Shown here piece by piece: positions 3,101 through 59,271 of a stretch of 61,332 nucleotides of DNA. The notes under the pieces are model-generated. The model was given only the letters and a program-made list of their open reading frames with translations, was not told where the DNA came from and searched no databases. The number at the start of each line of letters is the position of its first letter. The first letter of the stretch is position 1. A program made the position numbers and the translations under genes. Source of the DNA: a virus (Duplodnaviria; Caudoviricetes); the IMG/VR virus record IMGVR_UViG_3300005253_000079, positions 1 through 61,332 of that record; one strand, written 5' to 3'.

Positions 3101-3816
3101 CCACCAAACTCGCCAATACTGAATGCGGTGGACATGACACCAGAGCAGCCATGCAAGGCATAGCGTTCTGTAGAGTCAAAGACCAGATTTTCCGTATAGG
3201 CTGCATCCTCCTGGAAGACGACTTTGATCATCCAGGGGCGATAGGGGGTACCCAGGTCGAGAGCGTCGATCGCGTCCTGAATTGTCAAGTCGGTCCCTCC
3301 ACCAGACGCATCAACGACCCGATCATAGCAAAGTTCGTCTGGCGTTCCGAGGTGTATCCCAATCCACCGACCGATGTCAAAGTCAAAGACTAGAGGAAGG
3401 AACTCGTTAGGCTCCAGCCTAGCATTACGCCTCTTAGACAGAAACAGGTTAGACGACGCGAGAACCGACTCGTCCTGGAACGTTATATCATTGCTTCCCG
3501 TATTGACGATGAACATGAGCTGGCCTGCTTCACCGTCAGGGATCGTAGGCGTAGAGGTGAGGGTAATGTCCGATCCCGCGTTGATCTGTGACATTGTAGT
3601 GTCAGGGCGGATCGAGCTTCCTGCAACCATAAGGCGCGAGAAGTCGGGCGTGAACATTGTAGCCCCCGACTGCCAAAGTCCCTGAACCTCGAAGTCTTGA
3701 CCGAACTCAGGCATGAGGGAGCGCCAGTCAGTCAGAAGCGTCGTCTTAAACTGGTTGACTGCTTCTCCGACTATAAACTGTTCGCGCTGATTTAGGGTCT
3801 GTCCTGGTAGTGCCAT
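1..3816 (-). CDS. Tail fibre/tailspike (1279 aa) with a probable pectin-lyase-like beta-helix; continues across the circular junction to its stop at 61184
   Basis: Manual translation from ATG at 3816 (MALPGQTLNQREQF...) is open to base 1 and on to TGA at 61184-61186 (...KLEYTVSALSS*); VVDASGGGTDLTIQDAIDAL beta-helix cap motif, G/T/S/N-rich repeats, LPTADG..FLQTDGAGTLSW fibre motif; follows the nozzle gene. Confidence 0.85.
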   Translation of the reverse strand, partial: MALPGQTLNQREQFIVGEAVNQFKTTLLTDWRSLMPEFGQDFEVQGLWQSGATMFTPDFSRLMVAGSSIRPDTTMSQINAGSDITLTSTPTIPDGEAGQLMFIVNTGSNDITFQDESVLASSNLFLSKRRNARLEPNEFLPLVFDFDIGRWIGIHLGTPDELCYDRVVDASGGGTDLTIQDAIDALDLGTPYRPWMIKVVFQEDAAYTENLVFDSTERYALHGCSGVMSTAFSIGEFGGGQNSSHAGAVRIDGTVTTTGAGTGEIGLRGLHFDGSGSITIDVSRVSLKIDRCFVASGSSEALQLGTTTACEINNSQIGSDNTKKAVDLGLAAGLVASNTYFEGWLDLSAQVGARFDHCVVDVNNSGAGTAAVVCDEGLDKSSWRFVDCYIQQRNASGHGFRINSGASEHNLSVIGDCTIRGAGGGTAVRFVHSATATDEGAAVCGNIIDNWSTGIDAGSAENIITGCNTYINVTTNTTGGGGTGTILFDGTHGSLAELSDDDHSIYLLLAGRSGGQTAIGGTASGEDLTLQSTAHATRGNVIISDPVHIGPDGTPGSMNQLAIRRDVTDPASVTGYNIDTLSQATFTANNSTNHSWNRQGVVYILSGGAVLSGSETASVTLATLAGDGTVAELTAWVSAMNVIQTGSLTLTLGRAIRITNILAQFGATIDTAVGIEIDDLTSATVNIGLRNASPTRLVGAVTIGSDAAAAGGIELDLVGDQNISGTLNVDTIAEFTGSAGVTIANDLHLADNVKAIFGTGNDAEIYYDGNDLIIDPDAVGSGELKLLGEMDIVHTATENDGHTLEIDTNAAGFDDIKSVDIVYVTGTLAPGQNDEAVLVDLDENAASGGRFSAFEILTTTTGGVKVEALFAGAGVAPVEQLSGVFIDPDRAEVEGVDKLADLVNPLTNVNIFEADTDVMIIGNADKFEELEYILSTGSSGAGIKPKFEFSSGAGPAWTEFGPTDGTNGMRNTGIIVWEDTDISDLGVWTQIGGNYLIRITRQRASLTTEPVCSFLQLAVTVEYSWSKEGNLSINDLAVGGDSDFSGYVGLRSNNELRFYDNGNYVGFEAPALVANQIWVLPTADGAASTFLQTDGAGTLSWGTVDDQDIVTTGMQQTIVLTAGGGKESTTLPCAAPTVVEAGTNDVDYWVLDFATGADEYAFWGPIPMPDNWDGDEITAVFYWTAASGSGTVEWNIQYLSRAEGEAIDAAWTATTSVTDTLTTAGDVHITSATSAVAAGGAGGELLFIRVHRDVSGDNLGVDARLIAVKLEY

Positions 3817-3825
3817 TTTAGTTTA

Positions 3826-5973
3826 TCAGAAGCGAGGTTGTGTTGCCATAACACGCTCCTGGTCCGTGTCTACGCGATCAGGCAGCTTCTCAAACTCAGC
3901 TTTAGCAGACACTAGTGCTGGCTGAGTTGCTCTTGCAGCTATTGCTGCCTGTGTCCAGCCAAAAGCCCACCTAAAGCTATAGCCTCGCTGTGGCTGCCGG
4001 ATCTCTGTGACCGCAGGGAAGCGTAAGACCTTGAGCGGAGACATATTCCACGGCTCGCCTACGTCCCAGGTGTAGTAGAAGCGACCAAGGAGGTTGGGAT
4101 CAGAGTCAAGTCCAAACAGGGTAACAGACTTCAGACGTGATAGGTGTCCCTCGTTGGGAACAAAGGCAGGGAACTCCATTAGACCCACATCGTTTAGGAA
4201 GGGATGAGACATTGTACCGGGGTGTTCATCTGGAGTAATATCTATGCGCCAAACAGCAAAGCGGCCTATTGCAAGTAAGTTACGGAAGCGGTTTAGGTTT
4301 GTTCCTCCCACGTTACCGTAGATAACCGCACCAATATCATCAGGTTCTGGAATAGTTGCTATATCATGCCAGATCGATTGACCGCCCCCTCCACGCCGAC
4401 CAAGGAGCAGGTGAGGAAACGCACCAGATCGGTCCAGCCCGTCCAGAGGATAGTTAGTATTATCTATACTAGGCGACCACGGCTGAATCTGGATACTAAA
4501 GATTATCACTGGGTCATTACTGAGCGTACCACTGAAGCTAATTCTGATCCAGTAGAGTCCGCTCACCGAGTTTACAGTATCCGTGAGCCAGGACTGGGTA
4601 GCAACCGGATCGGCTGTCATTATGATGTTGCCTGTCTGACCCCACGGGGTCCCAACAGGCTGTGCCGTAAAGTCACGAACTGCGATCGTATTCCAGCCAG
4701 TCGATCCATCACTAACCTCAACCGTCATCGTTCGGGCGGTCGAGTTTAGAGTGCTAAATGCAATCTGAACTCCTATAAACGGCCTAACCCAACCAATGTA
4801 GAGAAAGTCAGTAGTCTGGTCGATCGTAAAAGATGCTGTCGTAGTGAGGCTACCATCTCGGACATTGGTAGAGTGATCCGTGAAGGTAGGTCCAGAAGCA
4901 TCAAAGCTAAACACACGCAAGTCGGAACCGGCTGATATCATCTTGGCATTAGCAAAGGATGCTGTGTTAACCGCCGTCGCCCCGACGATCTCATGCCGCA
5001 GCGATCCCATTGTTGCAAAGAATGATGTGGTGGTATGCAGATTGGGAGTTGACTCAGTCTCATGCGGGTCGAAGGGCTGCGTATTAACGCCATCAAAGGT
5101 AACAGCACCACCATCACCCATAGGGATTACTAGGACGTTACCTAGAGAGAAGGCCCCAATACCATTGCGAGCGTGGGGATATCTCCACCAGGCAGGAGTA
5201 CGGTTGGTCCACCGTAGCCGAGACTCGTTATATGCAAAGATACCTTCCGGCTTAATGGCAATTGGAGCGTTGCCAAGTGCTATTAGGGCGTTTATATTCG
5301 TGCCTGCGTAGCCGACCACTGTACCGGCCGACCAGAGAGTCGCATCCATGCGATCGGCCCCTAGTGGGCAAACGCTTACCGATGCGTTAGCCGATCCCCC
5401 CGACGCAGTAAAGGTGCGGTATAGGCGACCATGAAGGGAGAGGAGGAGACGAGCCTGAATAGTTGTATCGGCAACTAACGTGATTGCCTGAGCAACGTTG
5501 ATCCGTCGTATGACCTGTGCAGACGCTCCACCTCCAAAGCCTACATAGACGTAGGCCACACCAGAGCCGTCATCGTCAAAGGTAGCACCCGTAGCTAGAG
5601 CTGAGGCAGATGCTCCTGCACCGGAGATGAGAAGATCAACACCGCCAGCCTGGATGTTAGTATCGGCACCGAATAGGATCTTGTGGTACTGGGCTCCCGC
5701 AATGTAGAATATTGCAGGACTAATCGTGTCGGTATCAGTCCACTCGAGGGCAAATATAGGGGTATGGGGTAGGTTGGTTGTAGCGATGCTACGAACCTGG
5801 AGACCCATACGAACCTGACCAACCCACCGTGGATCGATCGAGCCGTGGATGCGGTGATAGCGGTGCTCTTTTACTTCAGTCGCATCTCCAAATCCCATAT
5901 GGGATGATTCAAAGAGAGTGACCTCTGTAATAGGACTTTCGGTCTGTTCATCCTGATTTCTAGGTTGGACCAT
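3826..5973 (-). CDS. Putative tail nozzle/stabilisation protein (715 aa)
   Basis: Beta-rich protein of nozzle size between adaptor and fibre in podovirus gene order; carries an inserted beta-sandwich module. Confidence 0.6.
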   Translation of the reverse strand: MVQPRNQDEQTESPITEVTLFESSHMGFGDATEVKEHRYHRIHGSIDPRWVGQVRMGLQVRSIATTNLPHTPIFALEWTDTDTISPAIFYIAGAQYHKILFGADTNIQAGGVDLLISGAGASASALATGATFDDDGSGVAYVYVGFGGGASAQVIRRINVAQAITLVADTTIQARLLLSLHGRLYRTFTASGGSANASVSVCPLGADRMDATLWSAGTVVGYAGTNINALIALGNAPIAIKPEGIFAYNESRLRWTNRTPAWWRYPHARNGIGAFSLGNVLVIPMGDGGAVTFDGVNTQPFDPHETESTPNLHTTTSFFATMGSLRHEIVGATAVNTASFANAKMISAGSDLRVFSFDASGPTFTDHSTNVRDGSLTTTASFTIDQTTDFLYIGWVRPFIGVQIAFSTLNSTARTMTVEVSDGSTGWNTIAVRDFTAQPVGTPWGQTGNIIMTADPVATQSWLTDTVNSVSGLYWIRISFSGTLSNDPVIIFSIQIQPWSPSIDNTNYPLDGLDRSGAFPHLLLGRRGGGGQSIWHDIATIPEPDDIGAVIYGNVGGTNLNRFRNLLAIGRFAVWRIDITPDEHPGTMSHPFLNDVGLMEFPAFVPNEGHLSRLKSVTLFGLDSDPNLLGRFYYTWDVGEPWNMSPLKVLRFPAVTEIRQPQRGYSFRWAFGWTQAAIAARATQPALVSAKAEFEKLPDRVDTDQERVMATQPRF

Positions 5974-13612: not shown

Positions 13613-14521
13613 TTAGTTAGCCCTAATCAGGACTGCACCAAAGTCGCCCGGAGTGGGATCGCTGTCGGTCGGAGGCGTCTCAGCCGCCCAGATAGCCTCA
13701 GAGGCGTTATACAGATCATAGGCAACAACCCCATCAGAGAGGTTATTAAGAACAAACTGCTGACGCACCGTCGGCAGGATCTGGCGGATCAGGATAACCG
13801 CCTCGCGGTGGAGCAGAGCGCAATCGGACTGACCGCTCGCCGGAATCCGGAGCAGATTCGACCGGAAGGACGGAGCCGCGTAGAGCATGGGCAGAGTGGC
13901 CGACTCGATGACCGGCTTGTTGATAAAGTCCTTACTAGAAAACTTGTCGTTACCAAAGAGAGCGGCAACAGCGCCTGGACTCCAGATCCAGGATGTGTCG
14001 CCCTCATCAGCCGCAGCATCGGCAAGAAACTGCCACGACCGTCGCAGCACGGCGTCATCGGGCTCAGCACCCAAAGCACCAGTGATCTGCGAGAAGCTCT
14101 GGAAGAGGTTAGAAATACTGACCTCGACGCCCCTCATAAGAGCGTAACCGAGACCGTCTGCAATGTTCTTCCGTTCCTCATAGTTAGACTGAGCTGCAAC
14201 TACAGCATTCAGAAGAGCAGCCGCATACTCATAAGTCGAGATCGTGATGGACTGGAAGTTAGTCCCCGAACCCGTTGTACCAGGCTGCGACTGGAAGTGA
14301 ATGGTATTTGAGATACCTTCGGTCTTCGTCTGCGTGTCGTAGTTTGCACGGATCGGAATCTGTAGAGTCCGACCAATGCTCATTTCTGCTTCAAACTTGG
14401 TGTTGACGCGCTTGGAGAGCACCTCCTTAAAGGTGATCGCGTTGCGCGTGTCCTTTGACCAGATTGTAGGCAGAAAGGCAGCATGCGTAGTACTTGTCAT
14501 TTCTCTAGTCGTTACTGACAT
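13613..14521 (-). CDS. Major capsid protein (HK97 fold, P22-coat-like)
   Basis: FLPTIWS...GRTLQIP pattern, 302 aa, immediately after the scaffold-like gene. Confidence 0.8.
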   Translation of the reverse strand: MSVTTREMTSTTHAAFLPTIWSKDTRNAITFKEVLSKRVNTKFEAEMSIGRTLQIPIRANYDTQTKTEGISNTIHFQSQPGTTGSGTNFQSITISTYEYAAALLNAVVAAQSNYEERKNIADGLGYALMRGVEVSISNLFQSFSQITGALGAEPDDAVLRRSWQFLADAAADEGDTSWIWSPGAVAALFGNDKFSSKDFINKPVIESATLPMLYAAPSFRSNLLRIPASGQSDCALLHREAVILIRQILPTVRQQFVLNNLSDGVVAYDLYNASEAIWAAETPPTDSDPTPGDFGAVLIRAN

Positions 14522-25394: not shown

Positions 25395-26906
25395 CTACCT
25401 CCCATGACTAGCTATCAGACCCTCTAGTGTCAAGAGCGTCTCCTCTGGAGTATACACCTTTGGCCGTCCTACGGAAAGCCCCTTTGGTCCTATGTAGTAT
25501 TTTGGGGCGTCCCCAACCTGACCACTACCCTGGAATATGTGACGAACCAGGTATCGTGCTGCATCAGGAGCGTGATCCTCTAGTTTAGTATCAATGTCCT
25601 CGATGTTATGCTTATCAGATATCATAAGAGGCAGAGTACGAGCAAGGTTAGGACACGACTTCATAATATACATTCGAGGCGGCGTGAGAACCCCACCATC
25701 AGGAGCTTCCTTCCAGTCGAGGAGTTCTCTAATTAGCTTCCATCCAGGAATACGCTCATTGTTACCACGATAGACAGTTGTCGTCTTCCCAAATGTGTCA
25801 TCCCAATCCTCTGCCATGCTTTTGATTCGCTCACCCTTTACATTCACCTTGCTGAACAGAGACGGATCTAAGACTACTCCCTTTAGTTTCTCAGATGAAT
25901 CTGTAGTTACCTGCCAAGCCTTGAAAATCTGCTCCTGGGCAGTAACCCCTTCTCCATACTGTTCTCGATAGAACCATACGCTCTGGGTTCCTGGCGGTCT
26001 AGCTGCCCATAGAGTCGCATGAGGAGCGTTAAACCCATAGTCGTGACCAATCCAACGATCCCAGTCAGGAGGGATATCGAAAGGCTCAACGATGTGAATT
26101 TCTGAGCGCCACCTCTGGAAGAACTGCCCTGTAAATATATTCCAGTTGCCGTATAGTTTAGCCTGTTGCTCTTCGTATGGAAGACCTCGTAGCGTGTCCC
26201 TATAAGTCGGGTCGCTCTTCATCAGCGTGTAATTATCTTCAACGCTTGCAGGTATAAAGACTCTAGTATATGATCCACTCTGACGAGGCGTCCTCCAGAC
26301 TGTCATAGGCGGATACTGATCAACAAAATACTCCTTGACCCAAGAGTGACCGATTCCCAGAGGTGTAGCAGCCGATCGTATTCGGCGTCCGGGCCACCAA
26401 GGTTTAGTTGATCGGCACCGCGATCGTAAGTATGTGTAGGTATATTCCGAAAAGTGAGTCAGCTCATCAAATCCCATTGCATCAAATTCTGATGTGTCGT
26501 AGGTTCTAGCTTCCTCGTCGCGCTCACAGAACCGTAAGAAGAACATTGATCCGTTGTCAAAATGCATGACGTGAGAGCCAGAGGAGTACGTTGCTATAGA
26601 CGAGGGTATTTCCTGCTGAAGAGCGATGATGTGAGTATCTTCTAGTTGGCGATAAGACTGACGGAAGAGCACAACCTGAGCACCAGGATATGTCATACAG
26701 TAGGTAACAAACCATGCACGGAGAGCGTAAGACTTACCGCCTCCCGCAGCTCCCCCATAGAGGACTTCTTCAGCATCCGCTTGCATAAACGCTGTCTGCT
26801 TACCCTCATGGATCGGATAGAGCAGACCCCGCTCCTCAGACGGACCGGACTTACGAACCAGTTGCTGCTGCCGACTAAGTCTAGGACGTTGTGGCTTCGT
26901 CGGCAT
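25395..26906 (-). CDS. terL: Terminase large subunit
   Basis: YGGAAGGGKS Walker A, FDELT Walker B, ATP coupling motif, GHSWVK, nuclease DYG and DHAPDAARY. Confidence 0.97.
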   Translation of the reverse strand: MPTKPQRPRLSRQQQLVRKSGPSEERGLLYPIHEGKQTAFMQADAEEVLYGGAAGGGKSYALRAWFVTYCMTYPGAQVVLFRQSYRQLEDTHIIALQQEIPSSIATYSSGSHVMHFDNGSMFFLRFCERDEEARTYDTSEFDAMGFDELTHFSEYTYTYLRSRCRSTKPWWPGRRIRSAATPLGIGHSWVKEYFVDQYPPMTVWRTPRQSGSYTRVFIPASVEDNYTLMKSDPTYRDTLRGLPYEEQQAKLYGNWNIFTGQFFQRWRSEIHIVEPFDIPPDWDRWIGHDYGFNAPHATLWAARPPGTQSVWFYREQYGEGVTAQEQIFKAWQVTTDSSEKLKGVVLDPSLFSKVNVKGERIKSMAEDWDDTFGKTTTVYRGNNERIPGWKLIRELLDWKEAPDGGVLTPPRMYIMKSCPNLARTLPLMISDKHNIEDIDTKLEDHAPDAARYLVRHIFQGSGQVGDAPKYYIGPKGLSVGRPKVYTPEETLLTLEGLIASHGR

Positions 26907-31649: not shown

Positions 31650-31670
31650 GACATAGACGACATACCCGCA

Positions 31671-31837
31671 CGGGCCTGTGAGCTGGAAGATCGTTGTAGA
31701 TCAGGGATGCGAAAATCGCCAGACGTGGGAGGCGACCCCACCAGGCCCGATTATTAGCAGGGACACAGGATTGCATCCCCCTCTGTGTTAGGTGACACTA
31801 GCACGGCGATCCTGTGTCCCTCCTACATACACGGAGG
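31671..31837 (+). promoter_or_regulatory. Riboswitch-like structured intergenic leader
   Basis: 8-bp closed multiloop, 16-bp stem, alternative 9-bp pairing, and anti-SD CCUCC next to GGAGG. Confidence 0.6.
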
Positions 31838-31842
31838 CGACC

Positions 31843-34852: not shown

Positions 34853-35018
34853 AGGTTGGTATACTCAAGTCTTATCCAAGGGGGAAGCGGAGTATTTCCC
34901 TGGTAGACTAGGCTAATGGCTCCATGCCATATTGTCTGATAATATAAGTGGAGACGTAAGCCTTATAAGCTGCTATATGAAACGTCATCTCTTGGGTAAG
35001 GCTTGATTATACCAACCT
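34853..35018 (+). ncRNA. Candidate structured RNA, 31-bp closing stem with internal hairpins
   Basis: 34853-34883 pairs with 34988-35018 (26 WC, 4 G-U, 1 mismatch). Confidence 0.65.
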
Positions 35019-35045
35019 AGTATAGTATAACAGGAGGTAGCTGTC

Positions 35046-35393
35046 ATGCCAGTCAGTAACAAACTAATAGGAAGAGCAGCCAGTCCAGGTATAGTACAGG
35101 GAGAGGCGTTTGTTGTTGAGTTACCCAAGACTAAGGGATTCCCTAGTAATGGAGCAGTGCTAGTGTCGCATATGACGACACCTGATCTCCTACCTGCAAT
35201 GTTAAAGTCAACTGCTATTGTTACTCAAGTAGGGGGTATAACCTGCCATGCTGCTATAGTAGCTAGAGAGTTTAGCATTCCCTGCGTTGTTGGAGTTAGG
35301 AAACTACTAGATAGGGTGAAGACAGGAACAAGGCTGATAGTAGACGGGAGCAAAGGCACAGTCGAAATCGTAGAAATCGTCGAGTCGTCATGA
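35046..35393 (+). CDS. Stand-alone PEP-utilising enzyme mobile (phospho-histidine swivel) domain
   Basis: G.AASPG.V.G, VLV..MTTPD, AIVT..GGITCHAAIVAREFSIPCVVG, VDG..G.V as in the PEP synthase/PPDK His domain. Confidence 0.92.
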   Translation: MPVSNKLIGRAASPGIVQGEAFVVELPKTKGFPSNGAVLVSHMTTPDLLPAMLKSTAIVTQVGGITCHAAIVAREFSIPCVVGVRKLLDRVKTGTRLIVDGSKGTVEIVEIVESS

Positions 35394-35557
35394 CTGAGCT
35401 ATTGCTAGTGCTGGCTGTCGCCTTTACGGTGGGCCACGTCATTGTAGACACCCATCGTATCAGACACATACACGAGCTGATACCTGCGGGCCTCCTAATC
35501 GGACATATCATATTTACAGGTGAACTAGCTCGGTGGCTGAGTTATATACCTTACTAA
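35390..35557 (+). CDS. 55-aa His-rich membrane peptide
   Basis: Manual translation MTELLLVLAVAFTVGHVIVDTH...; ATGA overlap. Confidence 0.55.
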   Translation: MTELLLVLAVAFTVGHVIVDTHRIRHIHELIPAGLLIGHIIFTGELARWLSYIPY

Positions 35558-35575
35558 CTTACTAACTTACTAACT
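35550..35575. repeat. Tandem repeat (CTTACTAA)x3
   Basis: Direct reading. Confidence 0.85.
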
Positions 35576-35582
35576 GAGAGGA

Positions 35583-36617
35583 GTGGACATAATCATGACC
35601 ACTAAGGTTAGAAAACCAAAGTCGGCGAAGAAGACGAAGGATGCACCTAGTGGCTCGGTAGGTGGTACATATGCTATGCCTATGACTATGCCTATGCCTG
35701 TGCTGCCCTCTTATCCTTCAATCGGGGGTAACTTCATTGATGCAGTGTTACCTAAGCCTAAGCCTAAGCCTAAGACTAAAGCTAAGACTAAGACTAAAGC
35801 TAAGACTAAGATTGATGTGACACTAACACCACCCGTTGCGTGTGACATCCCGGATTGCTCGGTGTGTAAGCAAGCAGGGGCCAAAGGTGCAAACCTCTCA
35901 ATCCGATCATACCCTAAAGCTTTGAGGACTGATATCGGTCTCCTTAACGAGCTTCCACTAGCCATGCATGCTGCTGACTTCTACCTACGCATGGCAATGA
36001 CAGTCCAGGGCAGGGGCGATCTTAGAGCTGGGCTAGAGTACCACGCAAACATGCTCGCGTCTGAGTTCTGTCGATACTTGAAGATAGCAACAACAGGAGA
36101 AGCGCGTCATGTATTTGGTCACGCAAATGTGAGTTCTCTAAGATATTATGGCAAGCATATGAAGGTAAAGGGCAATTATCCAGGGTTTATATCTTTCATT
36201 AGGCGTCTGGATATGATGACTTATACCGTAGCGAGAGTTGGCCGTGGTCAGGTATACAGAAACGCTGATAATATATGGGAGGGCTACGGAAAACTAGCTC
36301 CTCTATACCTTATGTTTATCTTTACGAGGCCTTCATGGAACAAAGGCTATGGAGGAGAGAAGTGGGGTCTATGTCTCAAAGTGCTTATGAACTACCTGCG
36401 AGGAAGACTCACTCCTATTGCATTTGTTGATCAGGCGTTCTCTCTTGAGCATAACGGGAGTATAGTGTACGACAAGACCGGCTGGAACCTGACTGGCCTC
36501 AAAAGAGTTCTTACCCGAGCACAGACAGGCTCATACAAATCTATAGCTGATAACTATGCTTCGAGTGATGTTGCTAAGATGTGGTATGATCACAAGGGCG
36601 GAGGTAAGAAAACATGA
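35583..36617 (+). CDS. Uncharacterised enzyme-like protein with Lys/Pro-rich tail and CxxxxCxxC
   Basis: ADFYL, GEARH, W.KGYGGEKW and FVD...EHNG....K motifs. Confidence 0.8.
   Translation: MDIIMTTKVRKPKSAKKTKDAPSGSVGGTYAMPMTMPMPVLPSYPSIGGNFIDAVLPKPKPKPKTKAKTKTKAKTKIDVTLTPPVACDIPDCSVCKQAGAKGANLSIRSYPKALRTDIGLLNELPLAMHAADFYLRMAMTVQGRGDLRAGLEYHANMLASEFCRYLKIATTGEARHVFGHANVSSLRYYGKHMKVKGNYPGFISFIRRLDMMTYTVARVGRGQVYRNADNIWEGYGKLAPLYLMFIFTRPSWNKGYGGEKWGLCLKVLMNYLRGRLTPIAFVDQAFSLEHNGSIVYDKTGWNLTGLKRVLTRAQTGSYKSIADNYASSDVAKMWYDHKGGGKKT
35751..35810 (+). repeat. Coding hexamer repeat (NCTAAR)x10 encoding PKPKPKPKTKAKTKTKAKTK
   Basis: Direct reading. Confidence 0.85.
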
Positions 36618-37624
36618 TCCAAAGAAAGATAATGTTCGACGGTCATGCTCCTCGATGGTGGAATAAGAGGAACAGACGACTACGCAGGAAGTATGAGAAA
36701 GACGGGGATATTAGTAATGACAACAGCGGTAAGGGAGGCTTTGTTAGTAAGCTGACAGATAAAGTAACAGGTTTCATTGGAGGAGGCTACCATTATAGGT
36801 CATGTGATCACTGGCGGACTGTTGTTAAGATTGGGGACAGTCATATCTTAGCAAGTGGGTTAATGGACCGGCCTAAACACCCGTTTGTGATGCCTGGACC
36901 TAAGCCCTGGCCCGACAAGGGCTTATACCTAGACGACTTATGGTCTCGACAATTAGGGGGTATATCATCGGCTGGAGTTAAGTGCCCGATCGATCCCTGG
37001 TGGCCGTATGTCATAGTTGATTGGAGTGATCGTGCAGCCATTGATGATAAGTGGTACACGCTGATTGTAAACCTGATCATCAAGTGGATGAAGTCAGGGG
37101 ATAAGGTAGAGATAGCCTGTCAGGGCGGACACGGACGTACTGGTACGCTGGTTGCAGGCGTGTTAGCTAAGGTCGAGGGCCTGTCTGCTAATGACGCTAT
37201 AGAGGCTCTGCGTGATAGGTACTGTAAACAAGTTGTCGAGTCTCACTCTCAGATATGTCAAATATACCGCTTCTTAGGCGAGAAGGAGCCAGATAAGCCG
37301 CCTATTGTACCGGCTACACCCTACTATATCGCGTTCGGGTATAAGCCACCACCAAGTAAATCTTATTTCCCGACGGGAGATACCGATCGTAAAGAGAGAC
37401 TAACAGGAGGGGTGAATAGGAAGGAAGGAACGTCAATCACAAAAAAACACGACCAGTATTATGGTAGTGACGATGATGATGATGAGTGTTTCTGTCGGCA
37501 CGACCGATGGAACCATTGGGGAGGAGGTGATGGTGTATGTAAGATGTGTCCCGCTGCGGGTGGTCAAGCCTGTAATAAGTTTAGGCTTATAGACCGCCTG
37601 ACTAATAGACCACGCTTATATTAA
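36614..37624 (+). CDS. Protein-tyrosine/dual-specificity phosphatase family (CX5R) with C-terminal Zn-finger-like motif
   Basis: DWSD acid loop, IACQGGHGRTG, LRDRYC..VVES..Q; CxCxH...H...CxxC...C. Confidence 0.9.
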   Translation: MIQRKIMFDGHAPRWWNKRNRRLRRKYEKDGDISNDNSGKGGFVSKLTDKVTGFIGGGYHYRSCDHWRTVVKIGDSHILASGLMDRPKHPFVMPGPKPWPDKGLYLDDLWSRQLGGISSAGVKCPIDPWWPYVIVDWSDRAAIDDKWYTLIVNLIIKWMKSGDKVEIACQGGHGRTGTLVAGVLAKVEGLSANDAIEALRDRYCKQVVESHSQICQIYRFLGEKEPDKPPIVPATPYYIAFGYKPPPSKSYFPTGDTDRKERLTGGVNRKEGTSITKKHDQYYGSDDDDDECFCRHDRWNHWGGGDGVCKMCPAAGGQACNKFRLIDRLTNRPRLY

Positions 37625-37646
37625 CGTTAGTATAGGAGGAGACAAA

Positions 37647-37961
37647 GTGACTAGAAGAATAGATCTGTTTGTAACAGTTGACAAGACCGGAAGCAAGGGT
37701 GGAGGGGTTGCTAATTTTAGTGCCTCTATCACATCGGGCTCCTTTCCCGAAGGAGAGGTAAGTCTAGCCCGAAAGCCGGACCATTGTTTCTTTGGTCTTG
37801 CCAATCTAGAGTCCCATAAGGGTCATGCGCCCAACTTTGCAACAAAGGCAGACTTGCAGGGATACATAGACCGTGTTAAGAAGTCTGTCGATAGCCTAGT
37901 CGAAGACTATCTTGACGCTGTCAATGTTGGGCCTACCCTGCTGAGTAGCTGGGAGATTTAG
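37647..37961 (+). CDS. Hypothetical protein
   Basis: GGGAG SD, GTG start. Confidence 0.7.
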   Translation: MTRRIDLFVTVDKTGSKGGGVANFSASITSGSFPEGEVSLARKPDHCFFGLANLESHKGHAPNFATKADLQGYIDRVKKSVDSLVEDYLDAVNVGPTLLSSWEI

Positions 37962-37988
37962 TCTATAGTATAGTCTAGTATAGACTAG

Positions 37989-38173
37989 AGCGAGGGGTTC
38001 ACCTCTCGCTTGGAGGACCGGAAGGTAATTGTTAGTCAACGCATCACCACAACCAATCTCGTAGCTCTGTCAACGCTAACGTGTGCTGAGTTAGGATATG
38101 GCGACGGGGCATACGTTAGTATAAGGGTTCCCCGACTAGCAGGTTGCTTCCGATCCTCCAAGTAAGAGGTGAA
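37989..38173 (+). ncRNA. Candidate structured RNA, ~40-bp closing stem and 13-bp inner stem
   Basis: 37998-38037 pairs with 38134-38173; 38075-38087 pairs with 38108-38120. Confidence 0.65.
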
Positions 38174-38480: not shown

Positions 38481-38723
38481 ATGACTAGTGATACGCCAAA
38501 GTGTAGCTATTACGAGGGTAAGACTTACGGACTAAGTGATTGCCTGCGCGAAGTTAGCGCGTGTCCGTGTTGCAAAGGTAATGGTACGCACACCCAGGAG
38601 TGTAGGGGATATAATACGATTGACAAAATCACAGTTGACAACATCTGTCATAGTTGTCTAGGATCGGGATGGAGCGAACTATGCGACAAGCACCAAGATA
38701 AGGAGGTAGGTGGTATTGATTAA
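38481..38723 (+). CDS. DnaJ-type CxxCxGxG zinc-finger protein
   Basis: CPCCKGNG, CHSCLGSG; AGGAGG SD before ATG at 38481. Confidence 0.65.
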   Translation: MTSDTPKCSYYEGKTYGLSDCLREVSACPCCKGNGTHTQECRGYNTIDKITVDNICHSCLGSGWSELCDKHQDKEVGGID

Positions 38724-39408
38724 TGGCTATGCTAATATAGGATCAGTTAGACATGGTACTACAGGAGAGGCTATCAAGGATATATTCGATATACATTTTC
38801 CTAACGCTGGCGGAGTTGCTGATTTAACTTGGGGCAAGGGAGGGTTTTGGAGTAAGCTAGGTAGTAGTGGATTGCCTCCTAACTATATTCAGGTCATTGG
38901 CCTAGACATAGACGTATCAGGTAAGGCTCAGATCAAGTCTGACTACAGATTAGTCCCATTACAGACTCAGAGTGTAGACGTAGCGGTATTTGATCCTCCC
39001 TTTATATTCACGCCGGGCATACGAGGACTAGTGGGGGCTAAACGTTTCTTCCTCGGATCAGAGGCAGCTACAGATGGTCGCTTCTATAGCGGTAGCAAGT
39101 CAGACTCTCGCATACTAGCACCTCGCAACGCTGAAGACTTGCGGGTCCAGACCCTGTTAGTCATGATCGAGATGAGACGTATAGCTAGGATGGGCTGTAT
39201 ACTAAAGGGACAGAATCTTATTACGTCGAAGCATCCTAACTGGTGGACATACCAGGTGATCGATCACGGACATAAGCTGTGGGGTCTAGAGCCGGAGGAT
39301 GAGCTAATACAGATCAGCCCGGCTGCAAGGATGGTTGATCCTCGTTGGAAGAGACAGTACCACTTTCGCAGGCATCATGCATATTATCTTGTATATAAAT
39401 GGGATTGA
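38710..39408 (+). CDS. DNA amino-methyltransferase (m6A/m4C type)
   Basis: DLTWGKGGFW SAM motif, GLDID, VAVFDPPF catalytic motif. Confidence 0.85.
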   Translation: MVLINGYANIGSVRHGTTGEAIKDIFDIHFPNAGGVADLTWGKGGFWSKLGSSGLPPNYIQVIGLDIDVSGKAQIKSDYRLVPLQTQSVDVAVFDPPFIFTPGIRGLVGAKRFFLGSEAATDGRFYSGSKSDSRILAPRNAEDLRVQTLLVMIEMRRIARMGCILKGQNLITSKHPNWWTYQVIDHGHKLWGLEPEDELIQISPAARMVDPRWKRQYHFRRHHAYYLVYKWD

Positions 39409-41728: not shown

Positions 41729-42301
41729 GTGATGAGCTGTCTAGCTGATCAGGATCACCTAACCTGCACCCTCTGCCCACTCAAGGACCACAGGCAGAAC
41801 GTTGTGCCTGGGCATGGTAACGTATTAGCTAGGATTATGCTAGTCGGTGAGGCACCTGGTGAGGATGAGGATAAGTCGAGCAAGCCGTTTGTTGGCAAGG
41901 CAGGTAGTAAGTTAGACAGATTGCTTGAGGTGGTTGGACTCAGTCGTCTAGAAATATGGCTGACCAACTTGGTGATGTGCCGACCGCCCAATAACGACCT
42001 AAGAGCCTATGCTGGTAGCACGATAACATGTCCTAGTCATTGGCTAGAACGTGAGCTGTCTATTATTAGGCCAGCATGTGTGGTAACATTAGGTGCATAC
42101 TCAGGCTCCTACTTCTTTCCCGGACTCACATCGGCACATGAGATGGCAGGTACGATTAGATCAGTGGGTAAGAGAGACTGGGAGATGTATGCTATAGGTA
42201 GCTATCATCCAGCATATGTATTCAGGCCGGGCGGAGGACGTTGGGTTGAGGCGTCAATAATATCGTCGTTGAAGAAAGCAAAGGAGTTATCCTATGATTG
42301 A
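41729..42301 (+). CDS. udg: Uracil-DNA glycosylase family 4 (Fe-S)
   Basis: CxxC, VGEAPG..ED....PFVG.AG, TN.V.CRPP.N, YHPA. Confidence 0.95.
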   Translation: MMSCLADQDHLTCTLCPLKDHRQNVVPGHGNVLARIMLVGEAPGEDEDKSSKPFVGKAGSKLDRLLEVVGLSRLEIWLTNLVMCRPPNNDLRAYAGSTITCPSHWLERELSIIRPACVVTLGAYSGSYFFPGLTSAHEMAGTIRSVGKRDWEMYAIGSYHPAYVFRPGGGRWVEASIISSLKKAKELSYD

Positions 42302-42743
42302 GGTAAAGGGCAACCTGTGGAATCATCCGGCTGATGCAAGGGTGATAACAACTAACGGCTTTGTCAAGAAGGACGGTCGAGCTGTGATGGGTAGGGGTAT
42401 TGCTTATGAGGCAAAGCAACGCTACCCTGACATTGACTTATGGTTAGGAGCAATGATACGCCGGGAGGGAAATATAGTATCCCCTCTTTATTGGGGCCTT
42501 GGAGATTGGGGTAGGGAGGCTTTAGTCAGCTTTCCAGTCAAGCACAACTGGTGGGAGAAGGCTGATACGTTTCTAATTACCAGGAGCGCCTTCCAGCTAA
42601 TGAGCCTTGCAGACCTCCAGCCTAGCTGGAAGATTATATGTATGCCTCGGCCCGGATGTGGGAACGGTAGGCTAGACTGGGTTGATGTCAAGATGATGAT
42701 TGATCCTATACTAGACGATAGGTTCCATGTCTTTAGTTTCTAA
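42294..42743 (+). CDS. Macro domain protein (ADP-ribose-processing)
   Basis: GNLW, TTNG...AVMGRGIA, FPVK, PRPGCGNGRL.W. Confidence 0.9.
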   Translation: MIEVKGNLWNHPADARVITTNGFVKKDGRAVMGRGIAYEAKQRYPDIDLWLGAMIRREGNIVSPLYWGLGDWGREALVSFPVKHNWWEKADTFLITRSAFQLMSLADLQPSWKIICMPRPGCGNGRLDWVDVKMMIDPILDDRFHVFSF

Positions 42744-46647: not shown

Positions 46648-47574
46648 ATGACTGACTCGTGGCATAGCTACCCATCCGTCTACGCTCTAGGACACAGCGC
46701 CTTAGTCGGACTATTAGAAGGTGATGTTGTTGTCCAGGAGAAGATAGACGGCTCACAGTTTAGCTTCGGAATCATTGACGGTGAGCTTAAGGTCAGGTCT
46801 AAGGGCAAACTCATGGAGATTGACGCTCCTGAGAAGATGTTTGCAGGAGCTGTCAAGACAGTCAAGAACATAGCTAGTGATCTAATACCTGACTGGACGT
46901 ATAGGGCTGAGGTCCTATCGAAGCCTAAGCACAACGCCTTGAAGTATGATCGTGTACCAGAAGGGAACCTTATCCTCTTTGACATCAACATTGGGCTTGA
47001 AAAGTACAAGAGGCCGTCTGGACTTGCGAAAGAGGCTCATCGTCTAGGTCTTGAGTTTGTTCCAACGTTCTATAGTGATGATGGTGTTAGCATAACAATA
47101 GACGTGATCACCGAGTTCCTCCTCGAGGATTCCTGCCTCGGTGGCACGAAGATCGAAGGCATAGTCATAAAGAACTATAGCCGCTTTGGTAAGGACAAGA
47201 AGGTCCTCATGGGCAAGTACGTCAGTGAAGCCTTCAAGGAAGTCCATAGGACGGCATGGAGTAAGGCTAACCCTCACGCTAAGGACATTGTGCAGTCACT
47301 AGTCGAGACCTATCGGACAGAGTCAAGGTGGCAGAAGGCTGTGCAGCACCTGCAAGAACGGGGTGAGTTGGAAGGCAGCCCACGAGATATAGGTAAGTTG
47401 ATCAAGGAGACCCAAGAAGATATATACAAAGAGAGCAGTGATGATATTAAGTTTGCGTTGTTCGTATGGGCTTGGCCTAAAGTGCAGCGAGCTGTCATTG
47501 CCGGTCTGCCTGAGTGGTACAAGGAAAGTCTGTTAGCGAAGCAGTTTGAGTCGGAGGAAGATACAGATGCCTAA
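46648..47574 (+). CDS. ATP-dependent RNA ligase-like nucleotidyltransferase (Rnl2-like)
   Basis: QEKIDGSQF motif I, YRAE, LFDI, EGIVIK, K.V...FKE. Confidence 0.85.
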   Translation: MTDSWHSYPSVYALGHSALVGLLEGDVVVQEKIDGSQFSFGIIDGELKVRSKGKLMEIDAPEKMFAGAVKTVKNIASDLIPDWTYRAEVLSKPKHNALKYDRVPEGNLILFDINIGLEKYKRPSGLAKEAHRLGLEFVPTFYSDDGVSITIDVITEFLLEDSCLGGTKIEGIVIKNYSRFGKDKKVLMGKYVSEAFKEVHRTAWSKANPHAKDIVQSLVETYRTESRWQKAVQHLQERGELEGSPRDIGKLIKETQEDIYKESSDDIKFALFVWAWPKVQRAVIAGLPEWYKESLLAKQFESEEDTDA

Positions 47575-52573: not shown

Positions 52574-52819
52574 ATGTCACCAGGTACAGCAGAAGTAAAC
52601 AGACCACCAACTGTGGAGGATCGTATTAGCCAAATCCGCACGGCTCTTATAGAAGCACACAATATTCTAGATGAGGTTGTGCCGAGAGATGACAAGCAGC
52701 CCGTCGAAGGCGAACCAAATCTCGGAATCCTAAGTGGGATTATTTCCTGCCAGGACAGACTGGACGAACTTCTGACTCGGCTACGCGATGTGGCGAACAC
52801 GGTAGGGCGTGTGAAGTAG
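52574..52819 (+). CDS. Small helical hypothetical protein
   Basis: GGAGG SD. Confidence 0.7.
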   Translation: MSPGTAEVNRPPTVEDRISQIRTALIEAHNILDEVVPRDDKQPVEGEPNLGILSGIISCQDRLDELLTRLRDVANTVGRVK

Positions 52820-52975
52820 GGACTAACCTGGGGTGTCTGTAGCGTAAGCGCAGAGGTCAACATGATGTTGATGTATTACGCCCCAGGTGGTGCGGACGCG
52901 GTGGGAGGGAGCTATTTGGCATAGTAATATGGCAACCAACCCCTCCCTCCCGCCGATTAGTAGGAGACCGATTAT

Positions 52976-53081
52976 AATGCTAATCATAATGCTTATCTTA
53001 GGTATCGCCATAGGACTTCTCGTAGGCTTTGTTGTATTAGTTGTGGCTCTGGCAAAGATAGGAGGTAGTTTTCTTAGCTGA
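52976..53081 (+). CDS. Small TM peptide (start approximate)
   Basis: AGGAG SD followed by MLIIMLILGIAIGLLVGF... Confidence 0.45.
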
Positions 53082-58340: not shown

Positions 58341-58730
58341 TTGAAAGTAGTTTATGTTGTAGGACCGTATACAGGCGAAACGCACGATAGTCGATCTCAC
58401 TTCGAGATATCTAGACATATCCTAGATGCATCAGAGATGGCAAGGGCCTTGTGTGAGCAGGGGATTGGTTACTTCTGTCCTCATCTACATGGTGCCCACT
58501 TCGAGTCTATTGCTCCAGACGTAAAACCTAACTACTGGTACGAGTTGGATAATTTCTTTCTAGACTTCTGCCATGCTGGTCTATTCCTACCTGCTTGGGG
58601 TAAGAGTACAGGGAGTCGGGACGAACATCAGAGACTAAAGGATCAGGGCAAGCCTATATTCTTTGCTCGCCATACAGGTAAGGTTCCAGAGGATTTGCTT
58701 AAATGGGCTAAAGGAGGTAGCAATGGCTGA
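58341..58730 (+). CDS. DUF1937/DUF4406-like NDT-fold protein
   Basis: VYVVGPY, CPH, W...D...L..C....LP.W..S.G...E. Confidence 0.75.
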   Translation: MKVVYVVGPYTGETHDSRSHFEISRHILDASEMARALCEQGIGYFCPHLHGAHFESIAPDVKPNYWYELDNFFLDFCHAGLFLPAWGKSTGSRDEHQRLKDQGKPIFFARHTGKVPEDLLKWAKGGSNG

Positions 58731-59271
58731 GACACCTGGAAAACTTGGTTATGAGGGGTACGAAACAAAGGAATCTGGTAAGCGTGAGGAGTTTGGCACA
58801 GGCTCAATTAGAGACACACGAGAGGGCAAGGGACGCTATGACCTAATCACTCCACTCGGTCTCAAGCGTGTAGCCGGTGTCTACGAACGAGGTGCCGCTA
58901 AGTACGGTGATCGTAATTGGGAGAAAGGTCAGCCGATTAGTCGCTACCTAGACTCAGCCTTACGACACATATATGAACACCTTGAGGGGCTACGAGACGA
59001 GGATCACCTAGCTCAAGCTGCCTGGAATATACTAGCTGCTACTCATACCGATGAGATGATCAAGCGGGGGCTGTTTAGTTCAAAACTAGATGACTTAGTT
59101 AGCTACCAGATCGATGACGAAGCTTCACAGAGCAAGCTTATAAAAGTGTGGGCACAGTATTTTGCAAAGCGCACGAAGGTAATTGAGGCTACCAGGCTAA
59201 AAAGAGAAGCGGCTGAGCATCTCAACAGCCCCATAAATAATACTTGCTGCGGCGGCGACAAGTGCCGTTAG
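58723..59271 (+). CDS. DUF5664-like dATP/dGTP diphosphohydrolase domain protein
   Basis: K.RYDLI...GA.KYG.RNWEKG...DSA.RH...EDHLA.AAWN; AGGAGGT SD before ATG at 58723. Confidence 0.85.
   Translation: MAETPGKLGYEGYETKESGKREEFGTGSIRDTREGKGRYDLITPLGLKRVAGVYERGAAKYGDRNWEKGQPISRYLDSALRHIYEHLEGLRDEDHLAQAAWNILAATHTDEMIKRGLFSSKLDDLVSYQIDDEASQSKLIKVWAQYFAKRTKVIEATRLKREAAEHLNSPINNTCCGGDKCR

Follow-up and report, generated by a model that had tools for sequence, protein, structure and literature searches.

The window analysed here takes in all 61,332 bases of an IMG/VR virus record (IMGVR_UViG_3300005253_000079, Caudoviricetes) that CheckV puts at 97% completeness. It carries a cassette built around a free-standing phospho-histidine swivel protein of 115 amino acids (aa), a 344-aa protein whose main domain is called X below, and a 336-aa cysteine phosphatase. 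The cassette is a real, conserved and uncharacterised phosphotransfer module, a variant of the dikinases of phosphoenolpyruvate (PEP) synthase type. On balance, and with somewhat better than even confidence, we read it as a split version, lacking the ATP-grasp domain, of a widespread three-part phosphotransfer system that consists of a dikinase engine, domain X and a phosphatase of the dual-specificity phosphatase (DSP) fold. New here are the third domain X, the obligate phosphatase partner, and the ATP-grasp-less form of a swivel-His phosphotransfer enzyme. A preliminary description of this DNA, made from the sequence alone, had singled out five adjacent and co-oriented open reading frames (ORFs) as a phospho-transfer operon, and these are present as described and tightly packed (115, 55, 344, 336 and 104 aa).

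The swivel protein is, judged by its profile match, an ordinary member of family PF00391. With an E-value of 1.5e-25 it reaches 89 bits, where 23.1 is the cut-off, and covers profile positions 3-72 of 72; the match is confirmed on the genome as well. The catalytic motif G-G-x-T-C/S-H-A-A is present and intact (GGITCHAAIVARE), and His68 is invariant across 21 aligned swivel proteins, so the phospho-His domain described earlier is indeed complete. A strong ribosome-binding site (AGGAGG, 35032-35037) serves the gene, whose stop codon is overlapped by the start of the 55-aa ORF, a case of translational coupling. Matches to NCBIfam cover only the swivel part of the models for PEP synthase, rifampicin phosphotransferase (RPH) and pyruvate, phosphate dikinase (PPDK), and the score for the PEP-synthase/PPDK type is 103.8 bits as compared to 38.7 bits for Enzyme I of the phosphotransferase system (PTS). 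In the latter case (TIGR01417/PtsI models) the cut-off is 341.7 and again only the swivel part aligns; the same is true of the RPH equivalog, with 67.7 bits against a cut-off of 999.

The domain that would normally charge such a swivel is missing. PPDK_N, the ATP-grasp domain of these enzymes (PF01326), has no match at E <= 10 in this 97%-complete genome, a local PPDK_N profile that detected five out of five positive controls finds nothing at E <= 1 in the six frames of the window, and tblastn searches with seven fused relatives of X are likewise empty for ATP-grasp. The earlier statement that no ATP-grasp partner is recognisable in the genome is upheld by all three. The PEP-utilizers_C barrel has no Pfam match among the 11 + 56 window ORFs covered, a scan that leaves aside ORFs below about 60 aa and some on the minus strand. 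Since the defining features of each of them fail, the assembly is not a PEP synthase, a PPDK, an RPH or an Enzyme I.

The second component, X, is a domain of about 230 residues that is all-alpha in the AlphaFold model. An exhaustive phmmer search of 1.84 billion representatives returns 660 relatives at E <= 1e-3, which match residues ~107-343 of the window protein. Ahead of the domain lie a Lys/Pro/Thr-rich stretch (residues ~57-76) and a CxxxxCxxC motif, and an ATG is found four codons inside the GTG start. In 53 aligned X sequences nine residues are invariant, namely E173, R175, G257, G258, W261, F281, H290, N291 and K298 in window numbering, and D283 is nearly so. The putative catalytic motifs and the Lys/Pro tail that had been pointed out in the 344-aa protein are therefore present, and the motifs fall on invariant columns of the family, apart from the near-invariant D283. 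Against the family profile, whose alignment includes the window protein itself, this protein scores 220.7 bits, with E-x-R, GG-x-K-W, H-N and K all in place. As several of the nine invariant residues are charged or polar and the model is confident and compact (pLDDT 88.7, pTM 0.88), X looks like an enzyme and is probably catalytic.

Known families and folds give little help with X. The protein has no match in Pfam, NCBIfam or PADLOC, and its only PHROG match is a weak one to a family of unknown function. A Foldseek search of the PDB with the model gives no match at E <= 1e-3, in an exhaustive VIA-align comparison with 48,161 chains the highest Z is 4.7, so that no chain reaches Z >= 5, and the matches in BFVD are four unnamed viral proteins of the X family only. 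PDB sequence searches with the single protein and with the family profile return only E > 0.2, a word-indexed protein search and a single-protein IMG/VR locus search return no matches, and the ESM Atlas offers no usable lead. Going by its model, X is thus a well-defined family without a recognisable solved fold, a missing match being no proof of a new one. An unrelated known fold, which would have spoken against the earlier reading of the protein, is not seen among PDB structures. A weak match to toluene monooxygenase (E 1.5) had suggested a di-iron ExxH protein, an idea that was dropped because His176 is replaced by Tyr in relatives and no ferritin-like fold is matched. Among the relatives of X, one 446-aa protein (P0024) has a C-terminal domain of ribosomal protein L7/L12 ahead of X (PF00542, 3.1e-25; TIGR00855, 86.9 bits, above cut-off), an arrangement that may point to a connection with translation factors, if only in one lineage. 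In another locus (L047), tandem X paralogues of 256 and 555 aa (3452-4222 and 4122-5789) are followed by one phosphatase.

What ties X to the swivel is a set of natural fusions. When the 150 best of the 660 relatives were scanned with Pfam, seven were found to contain PPDK_N, PEP-utilizers and X in that order (P0053, P0072, P0086, P0114, P0118, P0140, P0142), and an eighth, the fragment P0080, begins within the swivel and runs into X; X fused to a phosphatase does not occur in these 150. In tblastn, the seven fused proteins align with the window's swivel gene and then its X gene, in the same order, and with nothing else significantly. A scan of GTDB with a degenerate pattern, using one genome per species, matched eight loci. 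Four of these encode X, each with the swivel N-terminal to X on a single frame of 686-743 aa, in a Saccharibacteria genome, a Nomurabacteria genome, another Patescibacteria metagenome-assembled genome (MAG) and a Binatia MAG. Pfam confirms PPDK_N and PEP-utilizers in all three of the Patescibacteria fused proteins scanned, and in the two of them compared with NCBIfam the dikinase part, at 485 and 484 bits, exceeds the cut-off of 456 set for PRK05878 ("pyruvate, phosphate dikinase"). Because X follows PPDK_N and the swivel in the fused relatives, it takes, by domain order, the place that the substrate barrel has in PEP synthase and PPDK, the classic phosphoryl-acceptor position. This agrees with the earlier proposal of the 344-aa protein as the acceptor-side module.

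The third component is the phosphatase. Its CX5R loop, C169-QGGHG-R175, is invariant in 14 aligned proteins, as is Asp139, located some 30 residues upstream of Cys169 and the presumed general acid; a comparable acidic loop is found in 15 of 15 X-linked phosphatases in which the P-loop region was compared. The sequence stays below all Pfam gathering scores (DSPc 32.4 against 33.5, E 9.3e-8; PTP-SAK 23 against 27; Tc-R-P 23 against 27), although two relatives, P0177 and P0180, have precomputed labels PF22785/PF00782 and there is a sequence match to DUSP23 at 6.4e-5. The model is clearer, with a core at pLDDT 80-98 that matches 162 PDB chains at E <= 1e-3. These are led by Tk-PTP, VHZ/DUSP23 and SsoPTP, with SDP-1 also near the top and target TM-scores up to 0.73, and they include PIR1/DUSP11, the RNA 5'-phosphatase of the human capping enzyme and the baculovirus RNA 5'-phosphatase (E 3.6e-5 to 1.3e-4). 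The CX5R phosphatase that had been described from the sequence, with a Zn finger, is therefore confirmed as a divergent branch of the DSPs with a Cys/His-rich C-terminal tail. A [VI]GC-GG-GRTG loop is common to all phosphatases adjoining X, and the one in the window is most like phosphatase 2, the copy downstream of X, of the cultured phages. In Stenotrophomonas phage DLP3 a gene annotated as "thymidylate synthase" (L005 12590-13366) encodes a DSP-type phosphatase with a GCIGGHGRTG loop, and phrog_17568, a family of the same name that is matched by the window phosphatase, is of the same type with the same loop; the label looks wrong in both cases.

The phosphatase is a constant neighbour of X. 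In Vibrio phage KarBoss, Rhizobium phage RHph_TM16, Stenotrophomonas phage DLP3 and Rhodobacter phage RcZahn the order is dikinase, one to three small ORFs, phosphatase 1, X, phosphatase 2 and, further on, DNA polymerase I, and in Vibrio phage PJ32 it is dikinase, phosphatase, X. A phosphatase adjoins X in all five cultured phages examined, directly downstream in six of six distinct IMG/VR loci, and in six of eight metagenome loci; of the two misses, one ends inside X and the other has 570 nucleotides (nt) downstream. In Patescibacteria it is adjacent or one ORF away in two of three loci. Other neighbours of X include genes for a helicase, DNA polymerase A, DnaB, RecR and DNA-alkylation repair, and in one phage locus (L008) a helicase, DNA polymerase A and a phosphoribosyltransferase lie beside it. 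In another X-carrying phage, DNA polymerase A is split by an intein with a LAGLIDADG domain (L016 10551-15155). As homologues of the three core genes are both fused and co-occurring, the view that they form one functional unit has survived the observation that could have overturned it, a lack of any such association, and the phosphatase is a conserved partner across phage, metagenome and Patescibacteria loci.

The arrangement in the window is not unique either. A free swivel of 108-139 aa, X and a phosphatase are adjacent and co-oriented in the window and in four other loci, one from IMG/VR (L007) and three from metagenomes (L043, L044, L045). The closest of them, L043, is syntenic with the window over seven features. 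It has homologues of the 86-aa and 84-aa upstream ORFs, of the swivel (52% identity), X (38%) and the phosphatase (52%), and of the 104-aa ORF (47%). The free swivels of the four loci are 44-52% identical to that of the window, and since the motif is kept at this distance, they appear to be under purifying selection.

Taken together, the full system would comprise an engine of ATP-grasp and phospho-His swivel, an all-alpha catalytic X and a cysteine phosphatase of DSP fold. In the window, the 115-aa swivel would carry the phosphoryl group on His68 and dock on the X domain of the 344-aa protein, whose candidate pocket (E173, R175, GG-K-W 257-261, D283, H290, N291, K298) would move phosphate onto or off a substrate. 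The phosphatase, through Cys169, Arg175 and Asp139, would then take phosphate from the same substrate or from the product. We infer that X is catalytic and that phosphate is exchanged between phospho-His68 and a substrate bound by X, and likewise the direction in which it travels. The free swivel could be charged in trans by a host dikinase or Enzyme I (the borrowing suggested in the preliminary description), by ping-pong exchange at the X site, or by a partner that is not recognised as such, and the 104-aa protein may have an accessory role within this sub-lineage. As to the hairpin ahead of the swivel gene, it would most likely act in cis as an RNA element at which the cassette transcript is processed or stabilised.

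Several observations weigh against this picture. A swivel with a single catalytic partner and no ATP-grasp in a genome that is 97% complete has no obvious net reaction. PPDK_N is not found in L007 and L043-L045 either, but these are partial DNA only (a 48%-complete contig, 6.8 kb, 10.7 kb, and 7.2 of 62 kb, respectively). Three near-complete IMG/VR genomes (CheckV 100%, 91% and 100%) have X and a phosphatase with neither swivel nor PPDK_N, and because of them a phospho-His donor cannot be a constant requirement of X, which weakens the notion of X as nothing but an acceptor domain. Only eight of the 150 best relatives are fused, the majority of X proteins being free-standing. Conversely, Bacillus phage G (gp139) and two unverified phage records, whose proteins have 881 aa, match the dikinase but show neither X nor phosphatase within 7 kb. 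The writer/eraser relay of the preliminary description is therefore only partly borne out: kinase-type fusions and the phosphatase partner agree with it, and the three genomes without swivel and ATP-grasp speak against a strict form of it.

As for the target, a nucleic-acid-associated one, that is a DNA or RNA end or a nucleic-acid-bound molecule, is the leading guess. The X protein of the window has its basic Lys/Pro/Thr-rich stretch, phage X proteins have Cys-rich, Zn-ribbon-like N-terminal extensions, X-linked phosphatases have Cys-rich tails, and three X relatives (P0018, P0060, P0110) have Pfam matches of helix-turn-helix (HTH) type. These extensions and tails, the neighbours in replication blocks and the presence of RNA-end phosphatases within the DSP fold are the reasons for favouring nucleic acids. 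Two points count against this lean: it draws solely on accessory domains and neighbours, and by fold the phosphatase comes closest to protein phosphatases (Tk-PTP, VHZ). Since the fused gene looks like a housekeeping gene in the ultra-small Patescibacteria, the substrate is probably something basic to the handling of nucleic acids or nucleotides. A host protein or a defence signal as target, which had also been suggested, has found no backing, with no PADLOC family matched by any of eight proteins. In its boldest form the proposal would make X a new phosphotransferase site acting on nucleic acid (a DNA or RNA end, or a base or sugar hydroxyl), which together with its obligate cysteine phosphatase would be a hitherto undescribed system for end-healing or for nucleic-acid modification in phages and Patescibacteria, the free-swivel variant being charged by a host enzyme or by a small partner such as the 104-aa protein. 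This is a tentative idea and rather unlikely to be correct; if true, it would be a viral phosphorelay without a kinase of its own.

Among other explanations, the one that survives best is a nucleotide-pool enzyme, which we still consider unlikely. Here X would bind free (deoxy)nucleotides, the swivel His would shuttle phosphate in a ping-pong manner at the one X site, and the phosphatase would trim unwanted nucleotides; as part of the same account, the purpose would be the supply of deoxynucleoside triphosphates (dNTPs) or the exclusion of a canonical nucleotide during phage replication, and salvage in Patescibacteria. Nucleoside-diphosphate kinase works by a ping-pong mechanism that needs no ATP-grasp, and this would give a free swivel and X a net reaction without one. 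The module is found in blocks of replication and nucleotide metabolism such as that of L008, the window codes for a dATP/dGTP-diphosphohydrolase-type domain and for uracil-DNA glycosylase (UDG)-family and nucleoside deoxyribosyltransferase-like proteins, and the fused form is present in Patescibacteria. However, a kinase and a phosphatase acting on free nucleotides make a futile cycle, and the Zn-ribbon, HTH and basic extensions on X are a poor fit to a small-molecule enzyme. X has no detectable similarity to nucleotide kinases in the PDB sequence and fold searches, and phages with X and phosphatase but no swivel could not carry out phospho-His ping-pong.

The preliminary description had also offered a phosphate sink, or decoy. 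In such a scheme the free swivel would draw phosphoryl groups out of a host relay (PTS Enzyme I/HPr, PEP synthase or a defence based on a His kinase), the phosphatase would clear them, and the host pathway would be shut down. The swivel is indeed free-standing with an intact His and no phage ATP-grasp, and a phosphatase gene follows two genes downstream. Yet the conserved partner of the swivel is X, and eight of the 150 best relatives join the two in one protein, seven of them with ATP-grasp, which points to a productive kinase. X and phosphatase also occur without any swivel, the cassette proteins match no PADLOC defence family, and the swivel is nearer to the PEP-synthase/PPDK type than to Enzyme I, as the scores above demonstrate. 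Given the swivel-X fusions in particular, a decoy is very unlikely. There is even less to be said for a decaying remnant, in which a full dikinase once present has lost its ATP-grasp, the swivel is a leftover, and only X and the phosphatase still work. Complete phages with X and phosphatase alone, and the missing ATP-grasp of the window, would fit this, but the swivel gene has a strong ribosome-binding site, an invariant His motif and translational coupling to the next ORF, and its arrangement is kept in the four other loci under what looks like purifying selection. An auxiliary metabolic gene, a PPDK or PEP synthase that boosts host central carbon metabolism, is scarcely tenable: GenBank labels related phage genes "pyruvate phosphate dikinase", the homologue of Vibrio phage J26 is so treated in the excerpted text of PMC12038007, and the fused Patescibacteria proteins pass PRK05878, but Pfam finds no PEP-utilizers_C in the window, the KarBoss protein or the fused proteins, which have PPDK_N and PEP-utilizers only (the window the swivel only), the window has no ATP-grasp, and the constant partners X and cysteine phosphatase have no role in pyruvate metabolism.

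The preferred reading, a split and ATP-grasp-less form of a three-part system, can be compared to several known ones. PEP synthase (PpsA) and PPDK have the same PF00391 swivel with its catalytic His, and the fused X relatives share with them the engine of ATP-grasp followed by swivel and a third domain; unlike in these enzymes, the third domain is the all-alpha X, with no detectable relation to the PEP/pyruvate TIM barrel, and in the window there is no ATP-grasp and the parts are separate genes. PRK05878, an architecture of ATP-grasp and swivel without any barrel, is what the dikinase part of the fused Patescibacteria proteins matches. The "PPDK" genes of Vibrio, Stenotrophomonas, Rhizobium and Rhodobacter siphophages belong to the same module with X and phosphatases, whereas the window keeps the swivel piece alone. 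RPH and other small-molecule dikinases combine ATP-grasp and swivel His with a substrate domain that is not a barrel, and split forms such as phenylphosphate synthase have the parts as separate subunits, the known split forms retaining an ATP-binding subunit. By analogy, these would be precedents for a swivel that serves a helical substrate domain and for separate subunits; the RPH model, however, matches only the swivel of the window, and X has no PDB fold match at the Z threshold given above.

To our knowledge, glucan water dikinase and the DSP-type glucan phosphatases SEX4, LSF2 and laforin are the only well-known pairing of a swivel-His dikinase with a DSP phosphatase, and both act on the same polymer. 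The X system resembles it in pairing a swivel-His dikinase with a DSP-fold phosphatase, and the glucan pair may serve as a model for action on a polymer, but the domain order differs, the hosts are phages and Patescibacteria, and carbohydrate-binding modules are absent from the Pfam matches of the cassette proteins and their relatives. In end-healing enzymes a kinase and a phosphatase are paired in a way that is not futile, and the pairing seen here recalls theirs. RNA-end phosphatases (PIR1/DUSP11, the baculovirus RNA 5'-phosphatase, the triphosphatase of metazoan capping enzymes) have the same DSP fold and are able to act on nucleic-acid ends, but they rank below Tk-PTP, VHZ/DUSP23 and SsoPTP among the fold matches, and the fold says nothing on the substrate.

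In the literature searched, phage "PPDK" is regarded as a metabolic gene. In the excerpts of PMC12038007 it is treated in this way, with the statement that no functional study of viral PPDK exists, and a TIM-barrel pyruvate-binding domain is described in the PPDK of phage J26; neither X nor linkage to X is mentioned in these excerpts. In the KarBoss "PPDK" (L003 1274-3427) Pfam recognises PPDK_N and PEP-utilizers only, and the last ~200 residues of the phage "PPDK" proteins, the stretch to which the J26 paper assigns its barrel, have no Pfam match and are poorly conserved between phages. The KarBoss dikinase is matched by 61 records, and three of the eight examined are without the X/phosphatase module. 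The literature search brought up no description of X or of its dikinase/phosphatase linkage, nor any work on the function of modules in which phages combine a dikinase and a phosphatase. Nothing relevant on PPDK, swivel, DSP or dikinase is contained in two comparative-genomics papers (PMC9503650, PMC7824862). A preprint on phage phosphatases against RES defence deals, in the portion consulted, with a different pathway, a specialised phosphatase in NARP1 operons, and a heading of its Methods points to Macro-domain proteins.

Table 1. Features of the cassette and its surroundings in the 61,332-base window, and inverted repeats in other X-carrying phages (positions there refer to the respective loci)
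Feature	Position	Strand	Remarks
Structured element 1	34853..35018	+	28-nt closing arms, branched interior; leader just upstream of swivel gene; inverted repeat I2
TAGTATAGTATA motif	35018..35029	+	between element 1 and ribosome-binding site
Free-standing phospho-His swivel protein, 115 aa	35046..35393	+	PF00391; catalytic His68 at 35247-35249
55-aa hydrophobic peptide, 5 His	35390..35557	+	start overlaps swivel stop codon
X protein, 344 aa	35583..36617	+	GTG start; disordered N-terminus, then X domain at residues ~107-343
Cysteine phosphatase of DSP/PTP fold, 336 aa	36614..37624	+	core residues ~63-230: Asp139, Cys169, Arg175
Conserved 104-aa protein	37647..37961	+	homologues directly after phosphatase in L043 and L044
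Palindromic run of overlapping TAGTATAGTCTA-like motifs	37958..37990	+	just ahead of element 2; three overlapping matches at 37966-37987
Structured element 2	37998..38173	+	40-nt closing arms; between 104-aa ORF and next gene (38194); inverted repeat I1
Inverted repeats, X-carrying phage L008	8619-8928		
Inverted repeats, X-carrying phage L010	4987-5328		
Inverted repeats, X-carrying phage L015	2339-2668, 2675-2903, 3562-3809		

The cassette had also been described as bracketed by two structured RNA elements. Both long hairpins are upheld, as they fold far better than shuffled sequences: element 1 has a minimum free energy of -74.4 kcal/mol (z -7.5) and element 2 one of -78.0 kcal/mol (z -7.3), with none of 200 shuffles as good in either case. 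They are the longest two of six inverted repeats in the window (Table 1), they are unrelated in sequence and give no alignment with each other, and neither has a match in Rfam at the gathering score or at E <= 1. Two other low-energy regions that were folded are less extreme, 31660-31840 (z -4.6), at the divergent junction of two gene blocks, and 52760-52990 (z -3.8, plus strand), in a gap within the plus-strand block. The transcripts of this phage may be punctuated more generally by long hairpins. In L043 a hairpin with 35-nt arms (z about -5.7) fills the gap between the homologue of the 84-aa ORF and the swivel gene, the very position of element 1; the leader is moderately structured in L044 (z -3.8) and not structured in L045 (z -1.0) and L007 (z -0.5). 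Downstream of the cassette, no structured element was found in these four loci. The upstream part of the bracketing therefore recurs in the closest related cassettes, while its downstream part has no counterpart there. Element 1 is read as a conserved cis-acting feature of the cassette transcript and element 2 is specific to this lineage. The stems measure 28-40 bp, which makes a processing or stability site of RNase III type the most economical guess for element 1.

Short motifs accompany the hairpins. Allowing up to one mismatch, TAGTATAGTMTA has five matches in the window as compared to 0.88 expected, and four of the five are beside the two hairpins; the motif TAGTATAGT(A/C)TA is found beside both. 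Miniature inverted-repeat transposable elements (MITEs) were thought of as an explanation of the hairpins and not taken up, as no target-site duplication is seen by eye in the flanks and the hairpins do not align mutually. Other X-carrying phages have inverted repeats of 18-29 nt at distances of 180-290 nt, several of them around a single small ORF.

The two small ORFs of the cassette differ in standing. The 104-aa ORF has homologues in L043 (47% identity, E 4e-24) and L044 (E 3e-13), and as these follow the phosphatase in both loci it is, going by this conservation, a real gene and the fourth cassette member of this sub-lineage. Its product has no match in NCBIfam or PADLOC and only noise in Pfam at E <= 1. 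A low-confidence ESM Atlas model of it (pLDDT 0.46) resembles ATP-grasp_2 fragment clusters at a TM-score of 0.53, which is below the bar for naming a family and a lead only. The 55-aa peptide, described earlier as a His-rich membrane peptide of the operon, does exist as an ORF with its five His. It is no fixed member of the cassette, however: it has no family match and no homologue in loci L002-L016, none inside other cassettes, and one homologue in L043 that lies outside the cassette (E 2.4e-9). Its membership is doubtful.

In the genome as a whole, the minus strand carries structural genes (terminase at 25395-26906, a major-head-like protein at 13613-14521), and the cassette sits inside a long plus-strand early/replication gene block that begins at about 31.8 kb. 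The same block includes genes for the UDG-family protein, DNA polymerase A, an RNA ligase, a helicase, an ERCC4 nuclease, an amidase and the dATP/dGTP-diphosphohydrolase-type domain, and the nucleoside deoxyribosyltransferase-like protein is encoded in the window as well. The diphosphohydrolase domain is in a 202-aa protein (58663-59271, plus strand; PF18909, 7.8e-21; phrog_801), a type known as MazZ in 2-aminoadenine phages; a PurZ-like protein is not found among the window ORFs scanned. The RNA ligase (46648-47574, plus strand; PF09414, 7.4e-11; phrog_548) shares its gene block with a separate 149-aa "phosphatase" (42294-42743, plus strand; phrog_335, 8.8e-24), and these two may be an RNA-repair set that could relate to the chemistry of the cassette. 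Some 0.5 kb downstream of element 2, past two small ORFs, lies the gene of a 232-aa protein (38710-39408, plus strand) that matches a PHROG annotated as DNA methyltransferase (phrog_24333, 2.2e-14) and has no Pfam match. A promoter/terminator scan gave counts not above those in shuffled sequence, and a tRNA search of the window found nothing.

Nucleotide searches with the cassette gave no match in 50,697 phage records, and within IMG/VR, too, the phage is without near kin, as no terminase there exceeds 35% identity. DNA of the window was found in three sequencing runs, all DNA runs from one marine-sediment study that may be its source, with no RNA run listed.

For the phages concerned, the module changes how a familiar annotation should be understood. 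The "pyruvate phosphate dikinase" genes of dozens of cultured phages have been read as metabolic helpers. The linkage described here places those that come with the module in another system, one where a kinase engine supplies a new catalytic domain whose constant companion is a cysteine phosphatase. The ATP-grasp-less variant of the window raises the question of how a free phospho-His carrier is charged. As there are cultured carriers among Vibrio, Rhodobacter, Rhizobium and Stenotrophomonas phages, the system is open to study.

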